Of a stretch of DNA of 64,000 nucleotides, positions 21,465 to 33,320 are shown piece after piece. The stretch covers positions 192,001 through 256,000 of the forward strand of contig OZ244799.1 of the NCBI GenBank assembly GCA_965219955.1, read 5' to 3'. How positions within the stretch are numbered: position 1 is the stretch's first letter; every line of letters starts with the position of its first letter. Below the pieces are notes generated by a model, which was not told the DNA's origin, did not search any database, and was given only the letters and a program-made list of their open reading frames with translations. Origin of the DNA: a bacterium. GTDB lineage: Bacteria > UBA8248. Both the position numbers and the translations under genes were made by a program.

Positions 21465-22180
21465 ATGAAATCGTTTCTCTTGAGACCCCTGGCCTGGATG
21501 CTCGCCGTACTCCTGCTGCCCGCCTGCTGGGGGGCGGCGCTCGCGTTCGGCAAGAATCTCCCGGCCGCTTTTCTCTTGAGGAGCGGGAGTTCATATATGC
21601 CTGCGGCCGAGGGCTGGGCCTTCATCGCGGGCGCCTGCGCATACGCCGTCTGGCATCGCCTGGCGCCGCCTGAGTTTCTCTACGCCTTCGTGCACGAGTT
21701 CACGCACATGGCCTTCGCCCTCCTCACGGGGGAGAAGGTGCGTTCGTTCGAAGTGAACCGCGGGAGCGGGAAGGTGGGCTTGAGCGGCACGAACCCGATC
21801 ATCACGCTGGCGCCTTATTTTTTCCCGCTCCTGACGATAGCGGTGTTGATTCTGGGAGCGCTGCTCGACTGGACATTCGGATACGAGGAGATTCGCTGGG
21901 CGGTGGCGTTTCTCTCAGGCCTCACGCTGTGTCTGCACGTGCTCATGACGCTGCGCGCGCTGGGCGCGTCGCAGCCCGACATCGCGCGCGGCGGAAGGAT
22001 TTTCTCCTGGCCTTCATCTTTTTCTTCGGGCTCGTCTTCATCGGCGGCGCGGCGCTCGTCTCGGCGGGCGGGTGGAGTATGGCGGCCTTATACGGCGTCT
22101 CCATCTGGCGCGAAAGCCTGGATGCGTATGCGCTGCTCCTCGGCCTGGTGGAGCACGTCGCCTGGAGCCTCGGATCGTGA
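21465..22180 (+). CDS. Membrane zinc metallopeptidase-like protein (M50B-like) with an apparent 1-nt deletion at ~22007
   Basis: HEFTH motif, LAPYFFP; the hydrophobic C-terminus continues in another frame to 22180. Confidence 0.7.
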
Positions 22181-22794
22181 AACAAAACGCCTTCGCATCG
22201 CGGCTTCGATCTTCCCTGATCATATTCGTGCTGGTGCTGGTTCCGGCCTGCGCCTATGAGGTGACGACGATACGGGTCGTCGCCAAGCCGGGGAGGATAC
22301 GGGCGCTCGAGCGGGTCGTCGTCGCGCCTTTTCGCTATCCGAGCGACTGGACGGGACTTTTCCGGCACGTTTACGCGCAGGCGGGGCTCGAGGCGCCCGA
22401 TGTGAAGAAAATCGAGATGATAGAGGGCGCCTTTTTGATTCGCGACGCCGTCACCGCCAAGGGGTACCTGGTTCTCCGTTGGCCGGAGGAACTCGAAAAA
22501 ATCAAGGCCGACGATTTGCGGGACGCAGGAGGTGAAATCGCGGAGGATCATCTGGCGGCGCTCAAGGGTTCGGGCGCGCAGGCGGTGGTCTTGGCCCAAG
22601 GCGGGCGCACCTGCGAAGACGTCGAGGTGTGCGTCGCCAGGGTGGAAATACGCCTGTTGGACTTGAGTTCTCAAGAGGATTTATGGAAATCAGAAGCCTC
22701 CGCGACGACGGCGCTCTCCCAGGGGGACGAGATGAAAGCCGCCGTCACCGAGGCGTTCGACGCCTTTCCCGGAAAATCGCCTCCTTCCCGCTGA
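22177..22794 (+). CDS. Putative lipoprotein
   Basis: GTG start overlapping the upstream stop, signal peptide with lipobox VPAC. Confidence 0.65.
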   Translation: MKQNAFASRLRSSLIIFVLVLVPACAYEVTTIRVVAKPGRIRALERVVVAPFRYPSDWTGLFRHVYAQAGLEAPDVKKIEMIEGAFLIRDAVTAKGYLVLRWPEELEKIKADDLRDAGGEIAEDHLAALKGSGAQAVVLAQGGRTCEDVEVCVARVEIRLLDLSSQEDLWKSEASATTALSQGDEMKAAVTEAFDAFPGKSPPSR

Positions 22795-22868
22795 ACGCGG
22801 GGGCATTCGGATCTGTTGAAAAAGTCCCCTGAGGAAGCAATTTTGGGCTTCACGCACGCTTTTGAATT

Positions 22869-23054
22869 TCACTCCCCCCTTGAGGGGGAGTCGAAGAGCT
22901 AAGGGCGTAAGCCCGCAAGCGATTCGGTGGGGGGTATAAGTCGGACTGACAATAAAACGCATTTTACCCCCCACCGCATCAGCCTTCGCAAAAAACGCTC
23001 GGCTTCTGTCGGGCTTTCCCCTCGGGAAGCCCGACCCCCTCAAGGGGGGAGTGA
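22869..23054. repeat. ~185-bp palindromic element, copy 2, inside TGTTGAAAAA...TTTTTCAAC ends (22811-23162)
   Basis: Colinear with 14423-14601; tcactccccccttgagggg ... cccctcaaggggggagtga. Confidence 0.8.
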
Positions 23055-23301
23055 TTTTTCTCTCTCGTCGGTCGATTGCATACGACAAATCCAGAGTTCC
23101 AGACTTTTTCTACAGACCCCTCAAGGGGGGTGCTCCTTTGACAAAGTCTTTTTCAACGTCCTCGTTTTCGCCGGTTGGACACCCCCCCCGGCATGACGAT
23201 TTGTCGTTTTCGTCGGGCATATCGTGACAAAATGTCAATTTGACCGATCGTGTATATTTCTATCCTGTTGATAAATAAGGCATATTCCATCTTCATAGAA
23301 A

Positions 23302-23317
23302 TGGCACGGCTATTGCA
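23302..23317 (+). promoter_or_regulatory. sigma-54 (-24/-12) promoter
   Basis: TGGCAC-GGCTA-TTGCA matches TGGCAC-N5-TTGC exactly. Confidence 0.8.
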
Positions 23318-23327
23318 TGTTATATGA

Positions 23328-23480
23328 GCAAGCTGATTGGGGCGTTCATAGGCGGCACGCCCCGGTTAGCCGGCGAGAGGAGTAGCTGATTGGGTCGGCG
23401 CTCCTCCGCCACGCAATCATACATCTCGCAACTACCCCTTGCGAGAGCCTCCTCCCGGAGACGGGAGGAGGTTTTTTATT
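23328..23480 (+). ncRNA. Putative structured sRNA or attenuator leader, copy 1
   Basis: Follows the sigma-54 promoter; tandem hairpins then terminator cctcctcccg-gaga-cgggaggagg-TTTTTT; homolog at 30668-30819. Confidence 0.6.
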
Positions 23481-23604
23481 GGCCCGGTTTCCCTCCGCGC
23501 GGTTTTCAAGCGTACGCCTTTGGGTTATGGTGCGGCCCAAGTGAAATCACTCGGCGTATATTCGATGTTGAAAATTCATCCATTCAGTGATTAAGGAGTC
23601 GAAA

Positions 23605-24603
23605 ATGGCTACGGACAAGGTGCGCCTCGCCTCTATCGGGCTGGGCTGGTGGGGCGGCGTTCTGGTGGACGCCGTGAACCGCAGCGGTTCCGGCGAGGTG
23701 GTGACGGGTTTCGCGCGCAGCGAAGACGCCCGCAAGGCGTTTTCGGAGAAACACGGTTGCCGGACGGCGGGCAGCCTGGACGATTTATTGAACGACCCCG
23801 AGGTGGAGGGCGTCATCGTCGCGACGCCCCATTCCACGCACCTGGACATGATTTCTTCGGCCGCATCGGCCGGAAAGCACGTCTTCGTCGAGAAACCGCT
23901 CACCTTGACGGTCGATGAGGCCAGAAAGTCGGTCGAGGCGGCTTCCGCCGCGAACGTCACCCTGCAGGTCGGCCATCATCGCCGCCGCTTCGGCGCGAAC
24001 CGCGAGATGAGGCGGATGATCGACGCAGGCGAACTCGGCGTGGTGCACCAGGTGGAGGCGAACCTCTCGCTTCCCATGGGCTTCGAATCCAGGCCGGGCT
24101 GGCGTAACGACCCCGCCGAATGCCCCGCAGGCTCCATGACGGGCCTGGGCGTCCACATGATCGACAACCTGCAGTACCTGGCCGGACCCGCGAAGCGGGT
24201 GGCCGCCTTCAGCAAGAAGCTGCTCGGCAAGACGAACCTCGACGATGCGACGAGCATCATCATCGAATACGAGAGCGGCCCGCTCGGCCATATCGGAAGC
24301 TCTTTCGTGGTTCCCAAGATCTGCGACACGGCGGCCTTCGGCACGAAGATGAGGGCCTACAGCGAGGAAGAGGGCGGAAAGCTCTACGTGGCCAAGGTGG
24401 GCGAGGAAGCCCGCACCGAGGTCGAGGTCGTGGGCGGAGACGCCCTGGCGGATGAGATGGATGAGTTCTGCAAGTGCATCCGGGGCGAGGCGACGCCCGA
24501 AACCGGCGGGCCCGAGGGGCTCGAGGTCGTCGCCGTGCTCGAGGCTGTGGTGCAGAGCGCGACGACGGGTCAGGTGGTGGACGTGGCGGCCCTGCGCGGA
24601 TAG
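23605..24603 (+). CDS. Gfo/Idh/MocA-family oxidoreductase
   Basis: IGLGWWG, GKHVFVEKP, GHHRRF. Confidence 0.92.
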   Translation: MATDKVRLASIGLGWWGGVLVDAVNRSGSGEVVTGFARSEDARKAFSEKHGCRTAGSLDDLLNDPEVEGVIVATPHSTHLDMISSAASAGKHVFVEKPLTLTVDEARKSVEAASAANVTLQVGHHRRRFGANREMRRMIDAGELGVVHQVEANLSLPMGFESRPGWRNDPAECPAGSMTGLGVHMIDNLQYLAGPAKRVAAFSKKLLGKTNLDDATSIIIEYESGPLGHIGSSFVVPKICDTAAFGTKMRAYSEEEGGKLYVAKVGEEARTEVEVVGGDALADEMDEFCKCIRGEATPETGGPEGLEVVAVLEAVVQSATTGQVVDVAALRG

Positions 24604-24629: not shown

Positions 24630-26876
24630 ATGGCTCAGATGACGCACGTCGGCGCGTCGCCGACGAAAGAAGACGCACTCGCGAAAGCGGCCGGCGATAC
24701 GGTCTACGGCGATGACTTCCACATGCCGGGCGAGATATACGGGAAAGCCGTCCGCGCCTCGATGACGCCGGCGAGGATCGTGGAGATAGACGCGACGGAA
24801 GCGCTCGCCCTCCCGGGCGTGCACTGCGTTTTGACGGCGAAGGACATTCCCGGCCTGAACGCGGGCCGCTATCCCGATTACCCGGTGCTGGCCGAAGACG
24901 TCGTGGTCGATATCGGCGACGCGGTCGCTCTCGTGGCCGCCGACACGCGGGATCTGGCCGAAGAGGCGGCCTCGCTCGTGCGCGTCGCCTACGAGCCGCT
25001 GCCCGGCGCGTACGACTTCGCATCGCTCGAAGAGGGCGAGGTGGTCTGCGACTGGAAGGCGGACAAGGGCGACGTGAAGGCGGGCTTCGCCGAGGCGGAC
25101 GTGATCGTGGAGAACACCTATTTCTCCGCCTGCCTGGATCACGCCTTCATCGAACCCGAAGGCGGCGTGGCCTGGGTGGACGAGCGCGGGGTGGTGAACA
25201 TCCGCGTGCCCACGCAGATGATAGAGAACTACCAGAACGTGGCGCGGACGCTGGGCTTCCCCCTGAGCCGCGTGCGGTATGACTGTCCGATGCTGGGCGG
25301 GGCGTTCGGGGGCAAGGAGCACCCGCTGCTCGGCGCCTTCATGGCGCTTTTGTCGCTCCGGACGGGGCGGCCCGTGCGCATGGCCTACTCGCGCGAGGAG
25401 ACCATGAACACCGGCAGCAAGAAGCACCCCTTCCTGATGAAGTACAGGACGGGCGCGACGAAGGACGGAAAGCTCACCGCCATAGAAATCGACATCATCG
25501 GCGATGCGGGCGGCTACACGGCCAACAGCAAGGGTTTGCTGCTGGGCGCGCTCGTGGTGAGCGCGGGCCCCTATGAGATACCCAACGCGCGGGGCCGCTC
25601 GCGCGCCGTCAGGACGAACAACCCCTTCACCGAGGCGATGCGCGGCGTGGGTGCGAACCAGGTGTGCTTCGCCTACGAGGCGCAGATGGATGAGCTCGCG
25701 GAGCGGCTGGGGATGGACCCGCTCGAGTTCCGCGAGAGGAACTTCATCGCGAAGGGCCAGACCCTCATCCAGAATCAGCCCGTGCCCACGCGCGTGATGC
25801 TGCCCGAACTGGCCGAGGAGACGAAAAAGCTCATCGGCCGCTCGGCGGGCCGCGTCCCCGAGAAGGACCACGGCCCCTGGCGCGTCGGCGTCGGGTACGT
25901 TGCGAACATCGGCGGATACGGGAGGCCGAGGAACGAGGGCGAGGTCTATGTGTCGATCGATCTCGACGGCAGCGTGAACGTGCGCACCGGCGCCTCGGAC
26001 GTCGGCGCGGGCCAGACCCAGACGAACCGCCAGATCGCGGCGGAAGCCTTAGGCGTCGCCCTGGAAGACGTGACGGTCACGATGTCCGATTCCCACGTCA
26101 CCCCGCTCGTGGGCGTGACGGCGGGCTCGCGCCAGACGATGATCTCGGGCGGCTCGTGCTACCGCGCCTCGGCGGAGCTGAAAGACAGAATCCTGAAAGG
26201 CGCCGCCGAACTGCTCGAAGCGAACCCTGAGGATCTGGATATCCGCGAAGGCAGGGTGTACGTGAAGGCGGCCGAAGAGCGCGATGTCTCCTTCTCGGAA
26301 GCCGTGACGCAGTGCAGGAAGATGGGTATCGACCTCCACACGGTGGGCAAGACGAAGCTCGGCGTCCACGAGTACGAGGGCAACGAGCAATACGGCGACG
26401 CGGGCGGCTGGATGGATTACGTGTTCGGCATCCACGCGGCCGAAGTCGAGGTGAACGTCGATACGGGCGAGCTTCGCGTGCTCAACTACTGGTCGGGCCA
26501 CGACGTGGGCCAGTCCATCAACTTACAGCACGTGGAAGGCCAGTTCGAGGGCGGCACGATGATGGGCGTCGGCCACGCCCTGACCGAAGAGGTCCTGACG
26601 CAAAAGGGCGCGCTCGTGAACAACGAGTTCCACGGCTACCTCATCCCCACCTCGGTGGATACGCCCGAGTGGGACAACGTGATCCTGGAATCCGGCGAAG
26701 GCCTGGGCCCGTTCGGGGCGAAAGGCATCGGCGAGCCGCCCTGCACGGCGGGCGCCGCGGCGGTGGCCTGCGCGGCGGGCCAGGCGATAGGCGCGCGCCT
26801 CACGCGCATCCCCATCACGCCGGACCACGTCCTGGAAGTGCTGGGGCGGCTCAAGACGAACGGAAGCCAAGGCTAG
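24630..26876 (+). CDS. Xanthine dehydrogenase-family molybdopterin-binding subunit
   Basis: GGAFGGK, AMRGVG, GSRQT, GAKGIGEPP. Confidence 0.92.
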   Translation: MAQMTHVGASPTKEDALAKAAGDTVYGDDFHMPGEIYGKAVRASMTPARIVEIDATEALALPGVHCVLTAKDIPGLNAGRYPDYPVLAEDVVVDIGDAVALVAADTRDLAEEAASLVRVAYEPLPGAYDFASLEEGEVVCDWKADKGDVKAGFAEADVIVENTYFSACLDHAFIEPEGGVAWVDERGVVNIRVPTQMIENYQNVARTLGFPLSRVRYDCPMLGGAFGGKEHPLLGAFMALLSLRTGRPVRMAYSREETMNTGSKKHPFLMKYRTGATKDGKLTAIEIDIIGDAGGYTANSKGLLLGALVVSAGPYEIPNARGRSRAVRTNNPFTEAMRGVGANQVCFAYEAQMDELAERLGMDPLEFRERNFIAKGQTLIQNQPVPTRVMLPELAEETKKLIGRSAGRVPEKDHGPWRVGVGYVANIGGYGRPRNEGEVYVSIDLDGSVNVRTGASDVGAGQTQTNRQIAAEALGVALEDVTVTMSDSHVTPLVGVTAGSRQTMISGGSCYRASAELKDRILKGAAELLEANPEDLDIREGRVYVKAAEERDVSFSEAVTQCRKMGIDLHTVGKTKLGVHEYEGNEQYGDAGGWMDYVFGIHAAEVEVNVDTGELRVLNYWSGHDVGQSINLQHVEGQFEGGTMMGVGHALTEEVLTQKGALVNNEFHGYLIPTSVDTPEWDNVILESGEGLGPFGAKGIGEPPCTAGAAAVACAAGQAIGARLTRIPITPDHVLEVLGRLKTNGSQG

Positions 26877-27389: not shown

Positions 27390-28765
27390 TTGTCAGGGGG
27401 GTATAAAAAGGCGATGCGCCCCCGCCGGGTAGAGGGGTTTTTGGTTTTTCTTACCCCCCTGACAAGGGGGGGTAGGGGGGGGTGCTTTTCAGTCGAGAGG
27501 GGTGTCCCCTCTACCCCCTTTTGCCTGTGCCCGTCATTCCTCCCCAACCCGAATTTTCATGGGTGGAACCCGGCCCCGTCATAACTCCAGATAGGCTGAA
27601 ATAAAGAAATACGAGGAGCGGCTGCCGTACGAGAATGTACGTCAACACCGCTTGTCGAGCGATACGGAGGAGATTGCGCCGCCTGGACGTGAGCGAACAG
27701 GGAGGAACACACCATGTACACCAGACTGTCGAAAAGGCGTCCGGCTCGCCGGGCATGGGCTGCATCGAGACCGTTCCGGACGTATGGCGTCGCCGTTCTC
27801 CTCGCCTGCGTCGTCGCAATCGGGCTGCCCCCGCCGGCGCCCGCCGCCGCGGCGGGGAAGGACTACCGCCTGAGCGGCCCCTACACGCAGAACAATCTCT
27901 CCATCTATCTGATTCACCGCGAAGGCCGAACAGGCGGCCCCGCGCCGATCACCCTGGGCGAGGCGATGAGGCGGGGCATCGTCAAGGTCGTCGAAACCGG
28001 CAGCGTAAGACGCCTCAAGGTCCGCAACCTGGGCGATCGCGAGGTCTTCATCCAGGCGGGCGACATCGTCAAGGGCGGCAAGCAGGATCGCGTCCTGCTC
28101 ACCAGCCTGATCGTCCCCCCGAAGTCGGGCTACATCCCCATCGGCGCCTTTTGCGTGGAGCAGGGCAGGTGGGCCAGGCGCGGCCTGGAGGATGTGATGG
28201 CGTTTTCGACCTCCGCATACCGCATGCCTTCGAGGGCCGGCAAGATTGCGATGATGAAAGGCATGGGCTACGAGACCGCCCCCGCAACCGGTCGAACGGG
28301 AACGTGGGGAGAGGACCTGCATGGGTTGAGCATTTGGGGGGGGATGCGGCGGCGGAGAGGCGCATCTCTTCAGGGCGAAATGTGGCGCTCGGTCGGGATG
28401 ACGCAGAGGGCGTTGGGCCGGGCCATGGGGGCGCGCGTCGCCGACCGGCGCTCGCGCACGAGCCTCCAGTTGTCATTGGAGAACAAGCGCTTGGCATCCG
28501 CCGTGGCGGACTATGAAAAAGCCCTGGGTGGACTGTCGGCAAAGCACCCGGATGCCGTGGGCTATGTTTTCGCGGTGAACGGCAGGATCAACAGCGGCGA
28601 TGAGTTCGAGAGCGCTGGCCTGTTCCGCAGGCTGTGGCAGCGGCAGCTCAAGGCGGCGGCGACGGAGGCGGTTGCCGAAAAAGGCGCGCACAAGCGCATA
28701 CAGCCGACGCTCGCCGAGGTCGGCGCGTTCATCGATTCCGCGCGCGCCGCGAAGCCGGCCACTAG

Positions 28766-30500
28766 CCCGGATATTTCACCGACAAATGGCATGGGGCCTC
28801 TGAATGTCGGATAATGTGAGTTGTCTCAATAACTTACACCCGTCCGACAGAGAGGCCCCATGGATACGCATTGTACACCGGAACAACTTCACTTTCACCC
28901 CCACGGAAGACGCGAGGTCATCGCCCGATTCGACGGCGGACGGATCACGTCGGACGCCGGCGGGGTGCTGCTTCGCGAGACGGATCTCCGCCTGGGTCTG
29001 ATGGCTCGTCTGGCGCGGTGTTTTCGTGATTGCCGCAAGCCCGGCAGCGTGGAGCACCCGGTGCGCTCGCTGGCGGCGCAGCGGGTGTACGCGCTGGCGC
29101 TGGGCTACGAGGACCTGAACGACCACGAGGATTTGCGCCGCGACAGGTTGCTGGCGCTGCTGGTGGGCAAGCGGGACCTGACGGGAGCCGGGCGGGTTCG
29201 CCTTCGGGACCGCGGCTCTCCGCTGGCCGCATCGAGTACGCTGAACCGCCTGGAGTTGGGCGGCGCCGAGGCGGCGACGGATCGCTACAAGCGCATCGCT
29301 GCGGACTTCGAGGCGATGGACCGCCTGCTGGTGGACGTGTTCATGGAGTCTTACGCCGAACCGCCCGAAGAGATATGGCTGGACCTCGACGCCACGGACG
29401 ACCCCCTGCACGGTCGCCAGGAGGGGCGCTTCTTCCACGGCTATTACGGCCGCTACTGTTATCTGCCGCTCTACGTCTTCTGCGGCGCGCATCTGCTGTG
29501 CGCGCGGCTGCGCCGCTCGAACGTCGACGCCTCGGCCGGCAGCGAGGAGGAGTTGGCGCGGATCGTGGCGCAGGTCCGCAGGCGCTGGCCGCGTACGCGG
29601 GTCGTGGTTCGCGGCGACTCGGGTTTTTGCCGCGAGCCGTTGATGCGCTGGTGCGAGGAGAACGGCGTCGGCTACGTGTTCGGCATGGCGCGCAACGCGC
29701 GGCTGGTGCGGGCGATTGGCCGGGACCTCTACCGGGCCGAGGTCGTCTGTCGCCGCACGGGTGAGCCGGCGCGCCGGTATCGCGACTTCCGCTATCGAAC
29801 GCGCAAGAGCTGGTCCAGAACCCGCCGGGTGGTGGGCAAGGCGCAATACCTGCCCAGGGGGGCGAACCCGCGGTTCGTGGTCACCAATCTCCGCCCCCGG
29901 CGGGCCGGCGCCAGACGCCTCTACGAAGAACTCTACTGCGCCCGGGGAGAGATGGAGAACCGCATCAAGGAACAGCAACTCGGCCTGTTCGCCGACCGCA
30001 CCAGCAGCGCCACCATGAGGGCCAATCAGTTGCGGCTCTACTTCGCCTCCTTCGCCTACGTCCTGATGCACGGACTCCGGCGCCTGGGGCTGGCGGGCAC
30101 GACATGCGCCAGGGCCCAGTGCGCAACGATCCGGCTGAAACTGCTCAAGATCGGCGCCCGCGTGAGGGTCAGCGTGCGCAAGGTCCGGCTGTCTATCTCC
30201 GAGGCCTGGCCCCATGCGGCGCTCTTCGAAAAGGTAGTGAACAACCTGCGTACGCACCCGCCCTGGCCGACGGCGGGGGAGAGTGACTGAGCGTAGAATC
30301 GGAGCGACATAGGTTGCCGCAGCGGGAAACCTGCGCCTGCGCGTCGGCCGGCACTCCCCGAAAGCCTTCGAAATCGACGAAAAAGCGCCGCTCGGGCGCC
30401 GTGCGTCATCGTATCGCGCCGACGAAGAAGGCCGCCTCCCGAATCAAGCCGTCCACGACTTCAAATCAGGCCGTTCCAAAGCCTCGGTGAAATATCCGGG
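28766..30500 (+). mobile_element. IS1380-family insertion sequence (1735 bp)
   Basis: Perfect 17-bp TIR CCCGGATATTTCACCGA; CTAG target duplication at 28762-28765 and 30501-30504. Confidence 0.93.
28860..30290 (+). CDS. IS1380-family transposase
   Basis: FDGGRITSDAG, GYEDLND, DLDATDDPLHG, RGDSGF, RGEMENRIKE. Confidence 0.95.
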   Translation: MDTHCTPEQLHFHPHGRREVIARFDGGRITSDAGGVLLRETDLRLGLMARLARCFRDCRKPGSVEHPVRSLAAQRVYALALGYEDLNDHEDLRRDRLLALLVGKRDLTGAGRVRLRDRGSPLAASSTLNRLELGGAEAATDRYKRIAADFEAMDRLLVDVFMESYAEPPEEIWLDLDATDDPLHGRQEGRFFHGYYGRYCYLPLYVFCGAHLLCARLRRSNVDASAGSEEELARIVAQVRRRWPRTRVVVRGDSGFCREPLMRWCEENGVGYVFGMARNARLVRAIGRDLYRAEVVCRRTGEPARRYRDFRYRTRKSWSRTRRVVGKAQYLPRGANPRFVVTNLRPRRAGARRLYEELYCARGEMENRIKEQQLGLFADRTSSATMRANQLRLYFASFAYVLMHGLRRLGLAGTTCARAQCATIRLKLLKIGARVRVSVRKVRLSISEAWPHAALFEKVVNNLRTHPPWPTAGESD

Positions 30501-30667
30501 CTAGAGTGATGCCGGGAGGCTTGAACCTGGAGACGCGCAAGGCGAGCGGGTCGTTCTACATGGAAGTCCGGCGCGGGAACGACCACTGGGTGCACCGGAA
30601 CTTCGTCGCCCGCTAAACCGGCGCCCGTCGAACCGGTTGGACGGGCGGCGCTTGCCCCGGATACAGG

Positions 30668-30819
30668 AAATGCCGGTCGGAGCGTTCTTTGGCGGCACGC
30701 CCCGGCTGGCCGGCGCGAGGAGCGCCGATAGGGTCGGCGCTCCTCCGCCACGCAATCCTCCGTCTCGCATCTATCCCCTGCGAGAGCCTCCCCCCGGAGA
30801 CGGGAGGAGGCTTTTCTTT
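30668..30819 (+). ncRNA. Putative structured sRNA or attenuator leader, copy 2
   Basis: Colinear homolog of 23328-23480 with the same hairpins and terminator. Confidence 0.55.
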
Positions 30820-30960
30820 CGGGTGAAGCGCCCCGCGTCCGGCGGAGCGTTTTGGGCGATCGGGCCGGAAACGACGATAAAAAACGAAAGGCGGATGGAT
30901 TCCAGTTTTCGCCGGAATGACGGTGCGCATTCTCGAAGGTTGAGGATTATTCCCTCTTGA

Positions 30961-31141
30961 GGGGGTTATTGAAAAAGATCCGATGAAGAAGGGTTTGACA
31001 CCGGCGAGGAGCGAGCGGTTGTGTTTTGGTAGGGACAGGCCTCCGTGCCTGTCCTGATGGCAACCATCCTGCAAAGGACAACCACGGAGGGTTGTCCCTA
31101 CAACCGCCATTCCTCCTTCATCGAGGCTTTTTCAACAACCT
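30961..31141. mobile_element. MITE-like shell carrying a GTAG-REP doublet (31029-31101)
   Basis: gggttattgaaaaag ... ctttttcaacaacc. Confidence 0.5.
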
Positions 31142-31294
31142 CGATGAAGGAGCGTTTGTATCGAAGGATGGGGGGCGCATCGCCCTTCGATACGCGGCTT
31201 CGCCGCTACTCAGGGTGAGGCGGAGCGCCGGGCTGCGGGACGTTTCTGCGTCTTGAGACACGCGGACACGTATGCAAGCGAGGGCTTGTTCACT

Positions 31295-31353: not shown

Positions 31354-31490
31354 GGTTATAAATTCCCCATAGGCCTGCATTCCAGATGGCCGGAATGACG
31401 AGCGAAGACCGCGTAGGCCCGTCGTATCGCATCTTCCTGTCTTTCCCTGTAGGATGCGCCCGAAGCCCGCCCATACGTAGAGACGTGCGC

Positions 31491-33320
31491 ATGCTCTCGA
31501 CTCTGGACTGGTCGCTCATCCTCGCATACATCGCGTTCGCCTTGATCGTCGGTGTTCTCACCTCACGAGCGGCGTCTAAGAGCCTGGCCTCATATTTCGT
31601 GGCCGGGCGCAGCCTGCCCTGGTGGTGGATAGGCACCTCGATGGTGGCGACCACGTTCGCCTCGGACACCCCCCTCGTCGTGGCCGGCATCGTCGCCAAG
31701 CGCGGGATTTCGGGGAACTGGTTCTGGTGGGCGTGGGTCATCGGCAACGTGGGCGTCGCGGTCTTCTTCGCCCCCCTGTGGCGGCGCGCGGGCGTGGTGA
31801 CCGACGCCGAGCTCATCGAGTTGCGCTACGGGAGCGGCCCCGGCGCGTTCCTGCGCGGCTTCAAGGCCGTCTATTCCTCCCTCATCGTGAACATCATCGT
31901 CCTGGGCTGGGTGTTCCGCGCCATGGCGAAGATAGCCGAGCCCTTCCTCCGGTGGGAGGAGATTCTGCCCTCGAACCTGTGGACGGCCGTCGAGGCGAAC
32001 TGGCCTGCCGTCCTCACGATGGGAAGCGTGAACGAAAGCCTTACGGTCGCCCTGCTCGTCTTGATGATTGCGCTTTACGCGAGCGCGGGCGGCATCCGCG
32101 GCGTCATGCTCACCGATCTGTTCCAGTTCGTCATCGCGATGGCCGGAAGCTGCCTGTTCGCCTGGTACGCCGTCGAAGCCGTCGGCGGGCTCTCGGGCCT
32201 GAGCGCGAAGCTGGGCGAGATTTACGGCGCGGAGGGGGCGGCGAACATCATCTCCTTCCTCCCGCCCGAGGGCGCCGGATGGGCGGGGGCGCAGGTGATC
32301 CTCATCTACCTGTTCGTGGTCTGGTGGGCGCACAACAACGCCGACGGCGGCGGCTACATCGGCCAGAGGCTATGCTCGGCGCGCTCGCCGAGGGACGCCC
32401 AGGCGGGCGCTTTCCTCTTCACGGTCGGGAACTACGTCCTGAGGCCCTGGCCGTGGATACTCATCGGCCTCGTGAGCCTGGTCCTCGTGCCCAAGGGCAT
32501 GGACGCCCTGCCCGGCACGATGGAGGCGAAGATTCTCGCCGACCGCGAGGCGGCCTATCCCCTCCTCATGGAGAAACTCCTGCCGGCGGGGGTTCTCGGC
32601 CTCGTGTTGGTGGGTCTTTTGGGCGCGTTCATGAGCACGGTGGACACGCACCTGAACTGGGGGATGAGCTATCTCGTGAACGACGTGTATGCGCGTTTCA
32701 TCAGAAAAGGAGCGGGCGCGCGGGAGGTCGTCTTCGTCAGCCGGCTGGGCGTCCTGATCATGGCGGTCGGCGCCTTCGCCGTGGCGGGGCAAATCAAAAG
32801 CATCGAGGTCGCCTGGAAGTTCCACATCTCGCTCGGTGCGGGCCTGGGCCTTCCGGTGATCCTGCGCTGGCTGTGGTGGCGCGCGAACGCCTGGACGGAA
32901 ATTTCAGGGATGCTGGCCGCCGGCGCGACCGCCCTCTATCTCCACTGGGAGGGGAAGCCGCCCGCTTTCCCCGTATTGCTGGCCGCGGAGGTGGGCGTCG
33001 GCTTCCTGGTGATGCTGATAGTCACCTTCATCACGAGGCCCGCGCGCCCGGAGGTTTTGCGGAATTTCTGGGCGCAAGTGCATCCGCCGGGCGCATGGGG
33101 CCGGGTGCGCGGGGAGGACAGGCGCGCAGCCCCCGTATCGGCGCTTGCCGGTCTGTGGATTTGTATGAGCGTCTTCGTTTTCGCGCTGATGTTCCTGGTC
33201 GGCGCGCTGCTCGTCGGCACCTGGGCGCAGGCGGGCGGGCTCGCGCTCCTGGCGGGGTTCGCCCTGTGCATGGCGTGGGGGATCGACAGGAGGTATCGCT
33301 ACGGGATTTTGTTCGTGTAG
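31491..33320 (+). CDS. Sodium:solute symporter family protein
   Basis: YFVAGRSLPWW, SMVATTFASDTPL, AFMSTVDTHLNWG. Confidence 0.92.
   Translation: MLSTLDWSLILAYIAFALIVGVLTSRAASKSLASYFVAGRSLPWWWIGTSMVATTFASDTPLVVAGIVAKRGISGNWFWWAWVIGNVGVAVFFAPLWRRAGVVTDAELIELRYGSGPGAFLRGFKAVYSSLIVNIIVLGWVFRAMAKIAEPFLRWEEILPSNLWTAVEANWPAVLTMGSVNESLTVALLVLMIALYASAGGIRGVMLTDLFQFVIAMAGSCLFAWYAVEAVGGLSGLSAKLGEIYGAEGAANIISFLPPEGAGWAGAQVILIYLFVVWWAHNNADGGGYIGQRLCSARSPRDAQAGAFLFTVGNYVLRPWPWILIGLVSLVLVPKGMDALPGTMEAKILADREAAYPLLMEKLLPAGVLGLVLVGLLGAFMSTVDTHLNWGMSYLVNDVYARFIRKGAGAREVVFVSRLGVLIMAVGAFAVAGQIKSIEVAWKFHISLGAGLGLPVILRWLWWRANAWTEISGMLAAGATALYLHWEGKPPAFPVLLAAEVGVGFLVMLIVTFITRPARPEVLRNFWAQVHPPGAWGRVRGEDRRAAPVSALAGLWICMSVFVFALMFLVGALLVGTWAQAGGLALLAGFALCMAWGIDRRYRYGILFV

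Follow-up and report, generated by a model that had tools for sequence, protein, structure and literature searches.

A conserved, structured RNA gene of an uncultured bacterial lineage and its sigma-54 promoter, activator sites and terminator

The stretch of bacterial DNA analysed here (the window) comprises 64,000 nucleotides (nt), positions 192,001 to 256,000 of contig OZ244799.1 (assembly GCA_965219955.1, lineage UBA8248), and contains a structured RNA gene of about 150 nt, RNA-A, equipped with its own sigma-54 promoter, upstream activator sites and terminator. RNA-A is a real, conserved and well-supported member of a new RNA family and belongs to a known kind of regulator. We regard it as a stand-alone regulatory RNA gene with a probability of roughly 0.6, and independence of particular neighbours is seen for an extra copy present in a related genome (G030) and for a second RNA body of the same window, RNA-B, the canonical copy always lying next to the same operon. 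The first-pass annotation, made from the sequence of the window, had proposed an activator-dependent sigma-54 unit encoding a structured non-coding RNA with a terminator, and this proposal is borne out by the promoter, the activator sites, the fold and the conservation described below.

Anatomy, conservation and fold of RNA-A

The genome of the window (G000) is represented by a single contig; its genus and family are designated below as g1 and f1. The positions previously given for the palindromes, the IHF-like site and the promoter were all correct. The distal site of the activator, i.e. of a bacterial enhancer-binding protein (bEBP), is the imperfect inverted repeat TGACGATTTGTCG at 23194–23206 (approximately −134 to −122 relative to the predicted start), while the proximal one is the perfect inverted repeat TGACA-N3-TGTCA (TGACAAAATGTCA) at 23225–23237 (approximately −103 to −91). 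They are followed at 23261–23273 by an IHF-like bend site ATCAA-N4-ATA (TATCAACAGGATA on the reverse strand), which lies beside an A/T-rich stretch and presumably represents an imperfect match to the IHF consensus. The promoter TGGCAC-N5-TTGCA (TGGCACGGCTATTGCA, 23302–23317, plus strand) with its −24 GG and −12 GC elements corresponds exactly to the sigma-54 consensus, and its position predicts the start of RNA-A, which occupies 23328–23478 of the plus strand and includes hairpin P1 (23332–23370), hairpin P2 (23372–23410), a linker (23411–23423), hairpin P3 (23424–23446) and the terminator stem (23447–23472) with T6 at 23472–23477. Small open reading frames at 23390–23590 (plus strand) and 23346–23540 (minus strand) were considered as genes and rejected, as substitutions between relatives fit paired RNA and not codons, in agreement with the earlier statement that these ~150 nt contain no credible reading frame. 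A simple promoter and terminator scan of the region 22500–24000 reported no sigma-70 promoter and missed the terminator of RNA-A, whose 4-base loop and long stem fall outside the range reported by this tool.

Motif statistics confined to the 64-kb window depart only mildly from expectation. With no more than one mismatch allowed, the promoter pattern occurs there twice against 1.12 expected occurrences, and the palindrome pattern three times against 0.64, a count reached in 3 of 100 shuffled sequences; in the entire 4.28-Mb genome the strict promoter pattern was found five times, both strands taken together. It is conservation in relatives that marks the element as not fortuitous.

A covariance model (R1) built from 35 non-identical RNA sequences detected the RNA in 37 of 51 genomes of the class, G000 included, where RNA-A scored 172 bits. 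Within family f1 it was found by this model in 36 of the 41 other genomes and in 7 of the 9 genera, and it was registered neither in two other families of the order (0/1 in f2 and 0/1 in f3) nor in a further family of the class (0/7 in f4). By BLASTN, all 22 genomes of genus g1 and 31 of the 36 genomes of the family were found to contain the RNA. All 37 carriers have one or two copies per genome, far from the dozens that the first-pass annotation would have taken as a sign of a simple repeat. A pattern scan across 185,579 species genomes gave 47 loci, 32 of which also had the second conserved motif, and every one of these 32 belonged to metagenome-assembled genomes labelled Nitrospinota, Nitrospinaceae, Tectomicrobia or just “bacterium”; the remaining 15 were dismissed as chance matches.

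The regulatory elements are preserved along with the RNA. The form TGG(C/T)A(C/T)-N5-T(T/C)GC(A/T) of the promoter is kept in 29/29 related loci with N5 being variable, and sigma-54 elements were also recognised by eye in 8/8 further loci of more distant genera. According to the alignment, the distal activator site reads ATGACGATTTGTCG throughout genus g1, where the proximal inverted repeat is likewise conserved together with the block TATC-N4-TTGATA(A/T)AT, and half-sites resembling the activator repeats occur in other genera. As a separate observation, about 80 bases separate the sigma-54 promoter from the RNA in locus L014 of genome G014 (~1402–1497), and this insert starts with a partial duplicate of the 5′ end of the RNA itself.

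The suggestion that RNA-A belongs to no known Rfam family agrees with the scans by covariance models. With E-values up to 10 the best Rfam 15 matches in the region scored 18.6 bits, where the thresholds are 49.5 and 75, and were based on the terminator only; at the gathering score Rfam recognised nothing but tRNAs in the whole window. Among the papers listed by a literature search none connected sigma-54 or small RNAs with Nitrospinota, and the single one found for Tectomicrobia and non-coding RNA was unrelated.

The minimum free energy of the predicted fold is −86.8 kcal/mol, compared with −54.9 ± 4.4 kcal/mol for 200 shuffled sequences (z = −7.2). Homologues were collected and checked for covariation, as the first-pass annotation had advised, and this revealed a conserved structure. 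For 48 pairs in 35 sequences, standard pairing was observed in 97.1% of cells, while sliding of the 3′ partner by 1–3 columns reduced this value to 43–50%. Changes on both sides were registered for 18 pairs versus 7.4 ± 1.9 in shuffled alignments, none of 500 of which reached 18, and versus 2–8 in the slid controls. The four hairpins of RNA-A thus have covariation support in the aligned sequences. Most of it comes from P1, where 9 of 16 pairs are altered on both sides, and the sequence of P2 is nearly invariant. Pairing of CTCCTCC with the upstream GAGGAG, proposed earlier and now corresponding to P2, is supported by compensatory changes of register in genus g2, where both arms shift jointly from GGCGAGAGGAG/CUCCUCCGCC to GGCGGCUGGAG/CUCCGCCGCC (inspected by hand). 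Hairpin P3 is present in genus g1 and is replaced in other genera by an unpaired pyrimidine-rich stretch; the pyrimidine-rich arm of the terminator is its 5′ arm in every case. The motif AGGCGGCA in the loop of P1 is invariant in 35/35 aligned sequences. Two tertiary contacts were also considered. Pairing of the P2 loop (UGAUUG) with the linker (CAAUCA) into a pseudoknot was rejected, since U/C variation in the loop is uncompensated in the linker, and for a possible pairing of GGCGG in the P1 loop with CCGCC at the base of P2 every base is invariant.

Sigma-54 machinery, its activators and a sister RNA

The genome encodes sigma-54 itself (rpoN, PF04552 match with 201 bits), HU/IHF-family proteins and only two true bEBPs, i.e. 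full proteins with the Sigma54_activat domain. One of them is of the GAF type. The other, an NtrC/AtoC-like response regulator with REC-AAA+-HTH architecture (G000 165520–166899), shares an operon with a PAS histidine kinase, and this operon lies about 50 kb upstream of RNA-A. The exact 13-mer TGACAAAATGTCA of the proximal activator site has only one other occurrence in the genome, where it precedes another strict sigma-54 promoter by about 160 bp, so that the combination of the 13-mer with a strong sigma-54 promoter exists in two places only, at RNA-A and at G000 position 3130158 of the minus strand. This second promoter (3130158–3130173, activator site 3130334–3130346) carries a near-identical IHF-like block and precedes a sister RNA about 176 nt long (locus L081:2972-3147:-, at G000:C1:3129972-3130147 on the minus strand). 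Behind the terminator of this RNA comes a convergent HAD-hydrolase gene, so that the RNA stands alone.

The sister RNA was found in 34 of 41 genomes of the family and in none outside it, its sigma-54 promoters were recognised by eye in 8/8 distant homologues, and in other genera it has an additional 100–170 nt at the 5′ end. Rfam contains no family for it. The two RNAs are not homologous, as in G000 model R1 matches only RNA-A and RNA-B. A 9-mer ACAUCUCGC common to RNA-A and the sister RNA was set aside: by a rough estimate such coincidence is expected about once per ten pairs, and outside genus g1 this 9-mer is lost.

The phyletic distribution connects both RNAs with one of the two activators. 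All RNA-A-bearing genera carry an orthologue of the NtrC-type regulator with at least 71% identity. In the small-genome genus g5, RNA-A (0/4), the sister RNA (0/4) and the NtrC-type orthologue are all missing, the best match to this regulator being 49–51% identical and limited to residues 123–456, and the GAF-type paralogue is kept. Based on this pattern and on elimination, the NtrC-type regulator is the most likely protein to act at the TGACA-N3-TGTCA sites. The same activator sites would drive both RNA-A and its sister, so that this two-component system appears to have a pair of non-coding RNAs as its visible output.

One more strict sigma-54 promoter of the genome is located at G000:C1:3628034 (plus strand), 7 kb downstream of the gene for the GAF-type activator, and fronts a small open reading frame. 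Its upstream repeats are different (GGTAAATGGTAAATTTATGA), and it is, therefore, probably a target of the GAF-type activator.

One can assume the following order of events at RNA-A. RNA polymerase with sigma-54 would bind TGGCAC-N5-TTGCA and stay in the closed state until an NtrC-family activator opens the complex. The activator would occupy the two TGACA-N3-TGTCA sites, which lie near −95 and −130 and from where the IHF-like bend may carry it to the promoter. Transcription would then begin near 23328 and stop at the strong intrinsic terminator at 23477. No match to Hfq (PF17209) or CsrA (PF02599) was obtained in the single-contig genome, and the RNA would presumably act in trans without these proteins: an unpaired pyrimidine-rich stretch, consisting of the linker, the P3 loop and the flank of the terminator, could pair with purine-rich ribosome-binding sites, and the conserved P1-P2 domain may serve as a module for stability or protein binding.

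Stand-alone RNA or leader of the gfo-xdh operon

The first gene behind RNA-A encodes a Gfo/Idh/MocA oxidoreductase (gfo, 23605–24603, plus strand) and is followed by a gene for a molybdopterin subunit of the xanthine dehydrogenase (XDH) family ending at 26876; both were assigned by Pfam and NCBIfam. The first-pass annotation had left two possibilities, a small RNA or an attenuator leader of this operon. The evidence now leans to the first of them, and the second retains a minor share of our confidence. gfo follows the RNA in 10/10 loci annotated with Pfam, in 6/6 long loci and in 7/8 further loci. The two genes upstream of the RNA are equally syntenic, however, and general collinearity may therefore explain the adjacency to gfo.

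The spacer behind the terminator of RNA-A is variable in both length and sequence, and it is followed by a conserved motif GTTTTCAA...TTGGGTTATGGT (23503–23531, plus strand), which is a candidate for a separate sigma-70-type promoter or operator of gfo-xdh. Its core, TTG-N3-TAT(G/T)GT, is kept in most genera. Genus g5, which has the operon and no RNA, shows TGTTATAAC / TGTTATAGT, an extended −10-like sequence, in the same place upstream of gfo. For comparison, tRNA promoters of G000 are canonical TTGACA-N17-TATAAT. Taken together, the extra copies of the RNA, the own motif of gfo and the RNA-free operon of g5 lead us to consider RNA-A an individual transcription unit and gfo-xdh a separately promoted one. 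Further downstream, a small hairpin in the gfo leader itself (23532–23604) varies among species by compensatory changes (for example, CCAAGTG...CACTCGG versus CCGTACG...CATACGG), and a conserved AATTCATCCATTCAG block precedes the ribosome-binding site of gfo.

RNA-A is not a single-copy element. RNA-B (30668–30817, plus strand) reproduces its body from P1 through the terminator with 87% identity and a covariance-model score of 152 bits, has no sigma-54 promoter, and departs from RNA-A in P1 by compensatory changes. It is present in five closely related genomes of genus g1, including G000, while genomes lacking it have a plain terminator at the same site. Its 5′ edge is located a few bases past the equivalent of the predicted start of RNA-A, and its 3′ edge coincides with the U-tract. 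RNA-B is located between an ARPP-1-domain gene, whose 3′ end it directly follows, and a sodium:solute symporter gene (31386–33320) downstream, from which it is separated by a further terminator-like hairpin. The ARPP-1-domain gene (27714–28814) is interrupted near its 3′ end by an insertion sequence with a DDE_Tnp_1_4 transposase (28860–30290), and its last codons resume at approximately 30508–30616, just upstream of RNA-B. A C-A mismatch and an interrupted U-tract distinguish the terminator of RNA-B in G000 from that in all other genomes. In genome G030 the second copy is full, with activator sites and a sigma-54 promoter, and is followed by a convergent gene, whose GC content at third codon positions is 0.91, as compared with 0.74 for the opposite-strand frame.

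The presence of two copies within one window, the abundance of palindromes similar to repetitive extragenic palindromic (REP) sequences nearby and the almost exact coincidence of the duplicated unit of RNA-B with the predicted transcript could also be expected of a mobile repeat or a functionless fossil, resembling REP sequences or miniature inverted-repeat transposable elements and placed by chance behind a sigma-54-like motif. Such an origin is highly improbable. There are merely one or two copies in each of the 37 carrier genomes, the position is fixed and syntenic, and promoter, activator sites and structure are maintained, the latter by compensatory change, across seven genera; copy number and covariation effectively refute it. 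As to the palindromes, short GC-rich intergenic repeats of several kinds are found at 22900–23190 and 30850–31150 of the window and also in locus L109 (for instance, CCCCCTCAAGGGGGG and GGATTCC..TTCGCCGGAATGACG), with more copies elsewhere in the genome.

If RNA-A were a cis-acting leader, i.e. a riboswitch or a protein-dependent attenuator, the sigma-54 promoter would be the promoter of gfo-xdh, and the P1-P2 domain would bind a metabolite or a protein and thereby choose between termination and read-through into gfo. We judge such an arrangement unlikely, and the same holds for this choice by P1-P2, although several features speak in their favour. RNA, gfo and xdh are linked on the same strand in all seven RNA-bearing genera, P1 and P2 are extremely conserved including their loops, the invariant AGGCGGCA is typical of an aptamer, and in genus g1 the 3′ arm of P2 (CUCCUCC) can form 7 bp with GGAGGAG, the terminator's 3′ arm, making a possible antiterminator (read by hand). 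A leader terminator behind a sigma-54 promoter is reportedly used in the nasF leader of Klebsiella controlled by NasR. However, in genera g8, g4 and g2 the alternative pairing, as examined by hand, shrinks to only 4–5 bp; the bases involved are invariant, which puts this pairing beyond the reach of covariation. The data give no evidence for purine or sugar ligands, which the first-pass annotation had named for probing. The terminator itself is very strong (11-bp GC-rich stem and U6-9), and P2 would form first. The sigma-54-driven full copy in G030 has no same-strand gene downstream, a second terminator-like hairpin stands between RNA-B and the next gene, and the RNA behind the twin promoter at the other genomic site is clearly stand-alone. 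The promoter-like motif conserved between terminator and gfo, as well as the occurrence of the operon in g5 without the RNA, point in the same direction.

A bolder version, which we find rather doubtful, presents P1-P2 as an aptamer whose class, riboswitch or protein-sensing, would be new to science, so that control by sigma-54 and a two-component system at initiation would be combined with control by ligand at termination. If true, the aptamer would gate a pathway of Gfo/Idh/MocA and molybdenum-hydroxylase enzymes, and the stand-alone copies would be ligand-controlled small RNAs, to which the EutX/Rli55 RNAs carrying a riboswitch offer a parallel.

Four RNA libraries were compared for signs of expression. 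They provide only contigs, which are those of relatives, and may contain DNA. In one metatranscriptome a 170-nt contig covers 23339–23477 with 7 differences, giving a weak hint of an RNA-A transcript. Beyond the U-tract this contig continues for 30 bases. The three other runs have contigs for the coding region of gfo only, which start at 23573–23602, one of them with 44 extra unaligned bases. No contig bridges RNA-A and gfo in the four libraries, and gaps between contigs prove nothing. Shares of sampled sequence words were small in all RNA runs (0.05–0.09), so that no habitat was deduced.

Several observations weigh against a stand-alone RNA that acts in trans under the control of the NtrC-type regulator. 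The canonical copy always stands on the same strand upstream of Gfo/Idh/MocA-XDH in all seven genera, down to the lowest protein identity of about 65%. The core motif in front of gfo is lost in genus g8 (L029 and L031), and the candidate promoter is weak, with 8 of 12 consensus positions in genus g1 and no clear −35 element in genus g2. Both transcript ends, 23328 and 23477, are predictions from sequence, and the 30 bases by which the library contig passes the U-tract are unlike the genomic ones. Sequence conservation of P1 and P2 greatly exceeds that usual for base-pairing small RNAs and better suits a ligand- or protein-binding domain, and part of the pyrimidine-rich “seed” is hidden within P3 and the terminator stem. 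Linker and P3 were matched by RNAduplex against 29193 candidate start regions of one genome without any outstanding target: the top match was the antisense strand of RNA-B, followed by a smooth GC-driven tail. Finally, the regulator was assigned solely by elimination and co-occurrence, and two genomes deviate from this co-occurrence: G034 has the RNA and no detectable NtrC-type orthologue, while G024 has the orthologue and no detectable RNA, its contig ending 217 bases upstream of gfo.

Relation to known systems and significance

The closest design is that of GlmY and GlmZ. According to the published account (PMC3045617), the NtrC-type protein GlrR activates glmY and glmZ through conserved sites upstream, an IHF site lying in between, and both RNAs are governed in Enterobacteriaceae by one regulatory system, GlrK/GlrR (QseE/QseF). 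The system described here shares with it sigma-54 promoters, upstream activator sites, an IHF-like site, two RNAs presumably under one regulator and an intrinsic terminator for each RNA. The differences are also substantial. RNA-A has neither sequence nor structural similarity to these RNAs (no Rfam match), and, unlike GlmY and GlmZ, RNA-A and its sister have no homology with one another. Their activator site, TGACA-N3-TGTCA, is different from the site of GlrR. The NtrC-type regulator scores below every NCBIfam equivalog cut-off, that for GlrR included, and the lineage is uncultured and unrelated to Enterobacteriaceae.

A 240-aa protein is encoded directly upstream of RNA-A (22072–22794) in all RNA-bearing genera; it has a signal peptide, a lipobox-like LVPAC and no Pfam family, and it is missing from genus g5 just as RNA-A and the NtrC-type regulator are. 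It is reminiscent of QseG, a lipoprotein of the GlmY system, and a link with it is hypothetical.

Small RNAs dependent on sigma-54 are also known as the main output of two-component systems or phosphorelays from Vibrio, where Qrr RNAs are activated by LuxO and act with Hfq, and from Pseudomonas, where CrcZ and CrcY require CbrB, sigma-54 and IHF and CrcZ acts with Hfq. RNA-A would resemble them in this respect and differs by a large conserved structured 5′ domain, by the absence of sequence or structural similarity and by the genomic background, where no Hfq gene was found. With attenuating riboswitches and leaders it shares a conserved structured domain, an intrinsic terminator and a same-strand metabolic operon downstream. 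Unlike them, it has copies with no gene downstream and a promoter-like motif in front of the operon, its possible antiterminator has no covariation support, and no known class of aptamers matches.

The analogy with GlmY and CrcZ admits one more mode of action, in which RNA-A sequesters a protein or binds an adaptor and P1-P2 titrates some RNA-binding protein. Strong sequence conservation of P1, P2 and their loops would be natural for such an RNA, as would the location of two RNAs beneath one activator, known for GlmY/GlmZ and CrcZ/CrcY, and the failure of the target scan to give a convincing mRNA. Yet neither CsrA nor Hfq genes were found in the genome, the partner protein is hypothetical, RNA-A has no repeated short motif of the sponge type and is not homologous to the sister RNA. 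We hold sequestration to be a live but improbable alternative and prefer to see RNA-A as a stand-alone regulatory RNA acting on other transcripts.

No concept is changed by these data, since sigma-54-dependent small RNAs are already established. What they add is a new RNA family, well supported by covariation and 40-odd sequences, for which a covariance model and a defined promoter are available and which comes from a lineage that has had neither a cultured member nor known regulatory RNAs. The TGACA-N3-TGTCA site together with its presumed regulator provides a handle for heterologous tests. For the bacterium itself the picture is that of a minimal sigma-54 regulon, with two activators and a two-component system that has apparently only two non-coding RNAs as recognisable promoter targets. 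The design of GlmY/GlmZ and Qrr would have been reinvented in an unrelated phylum, seemingly without Hfq and CsrA.

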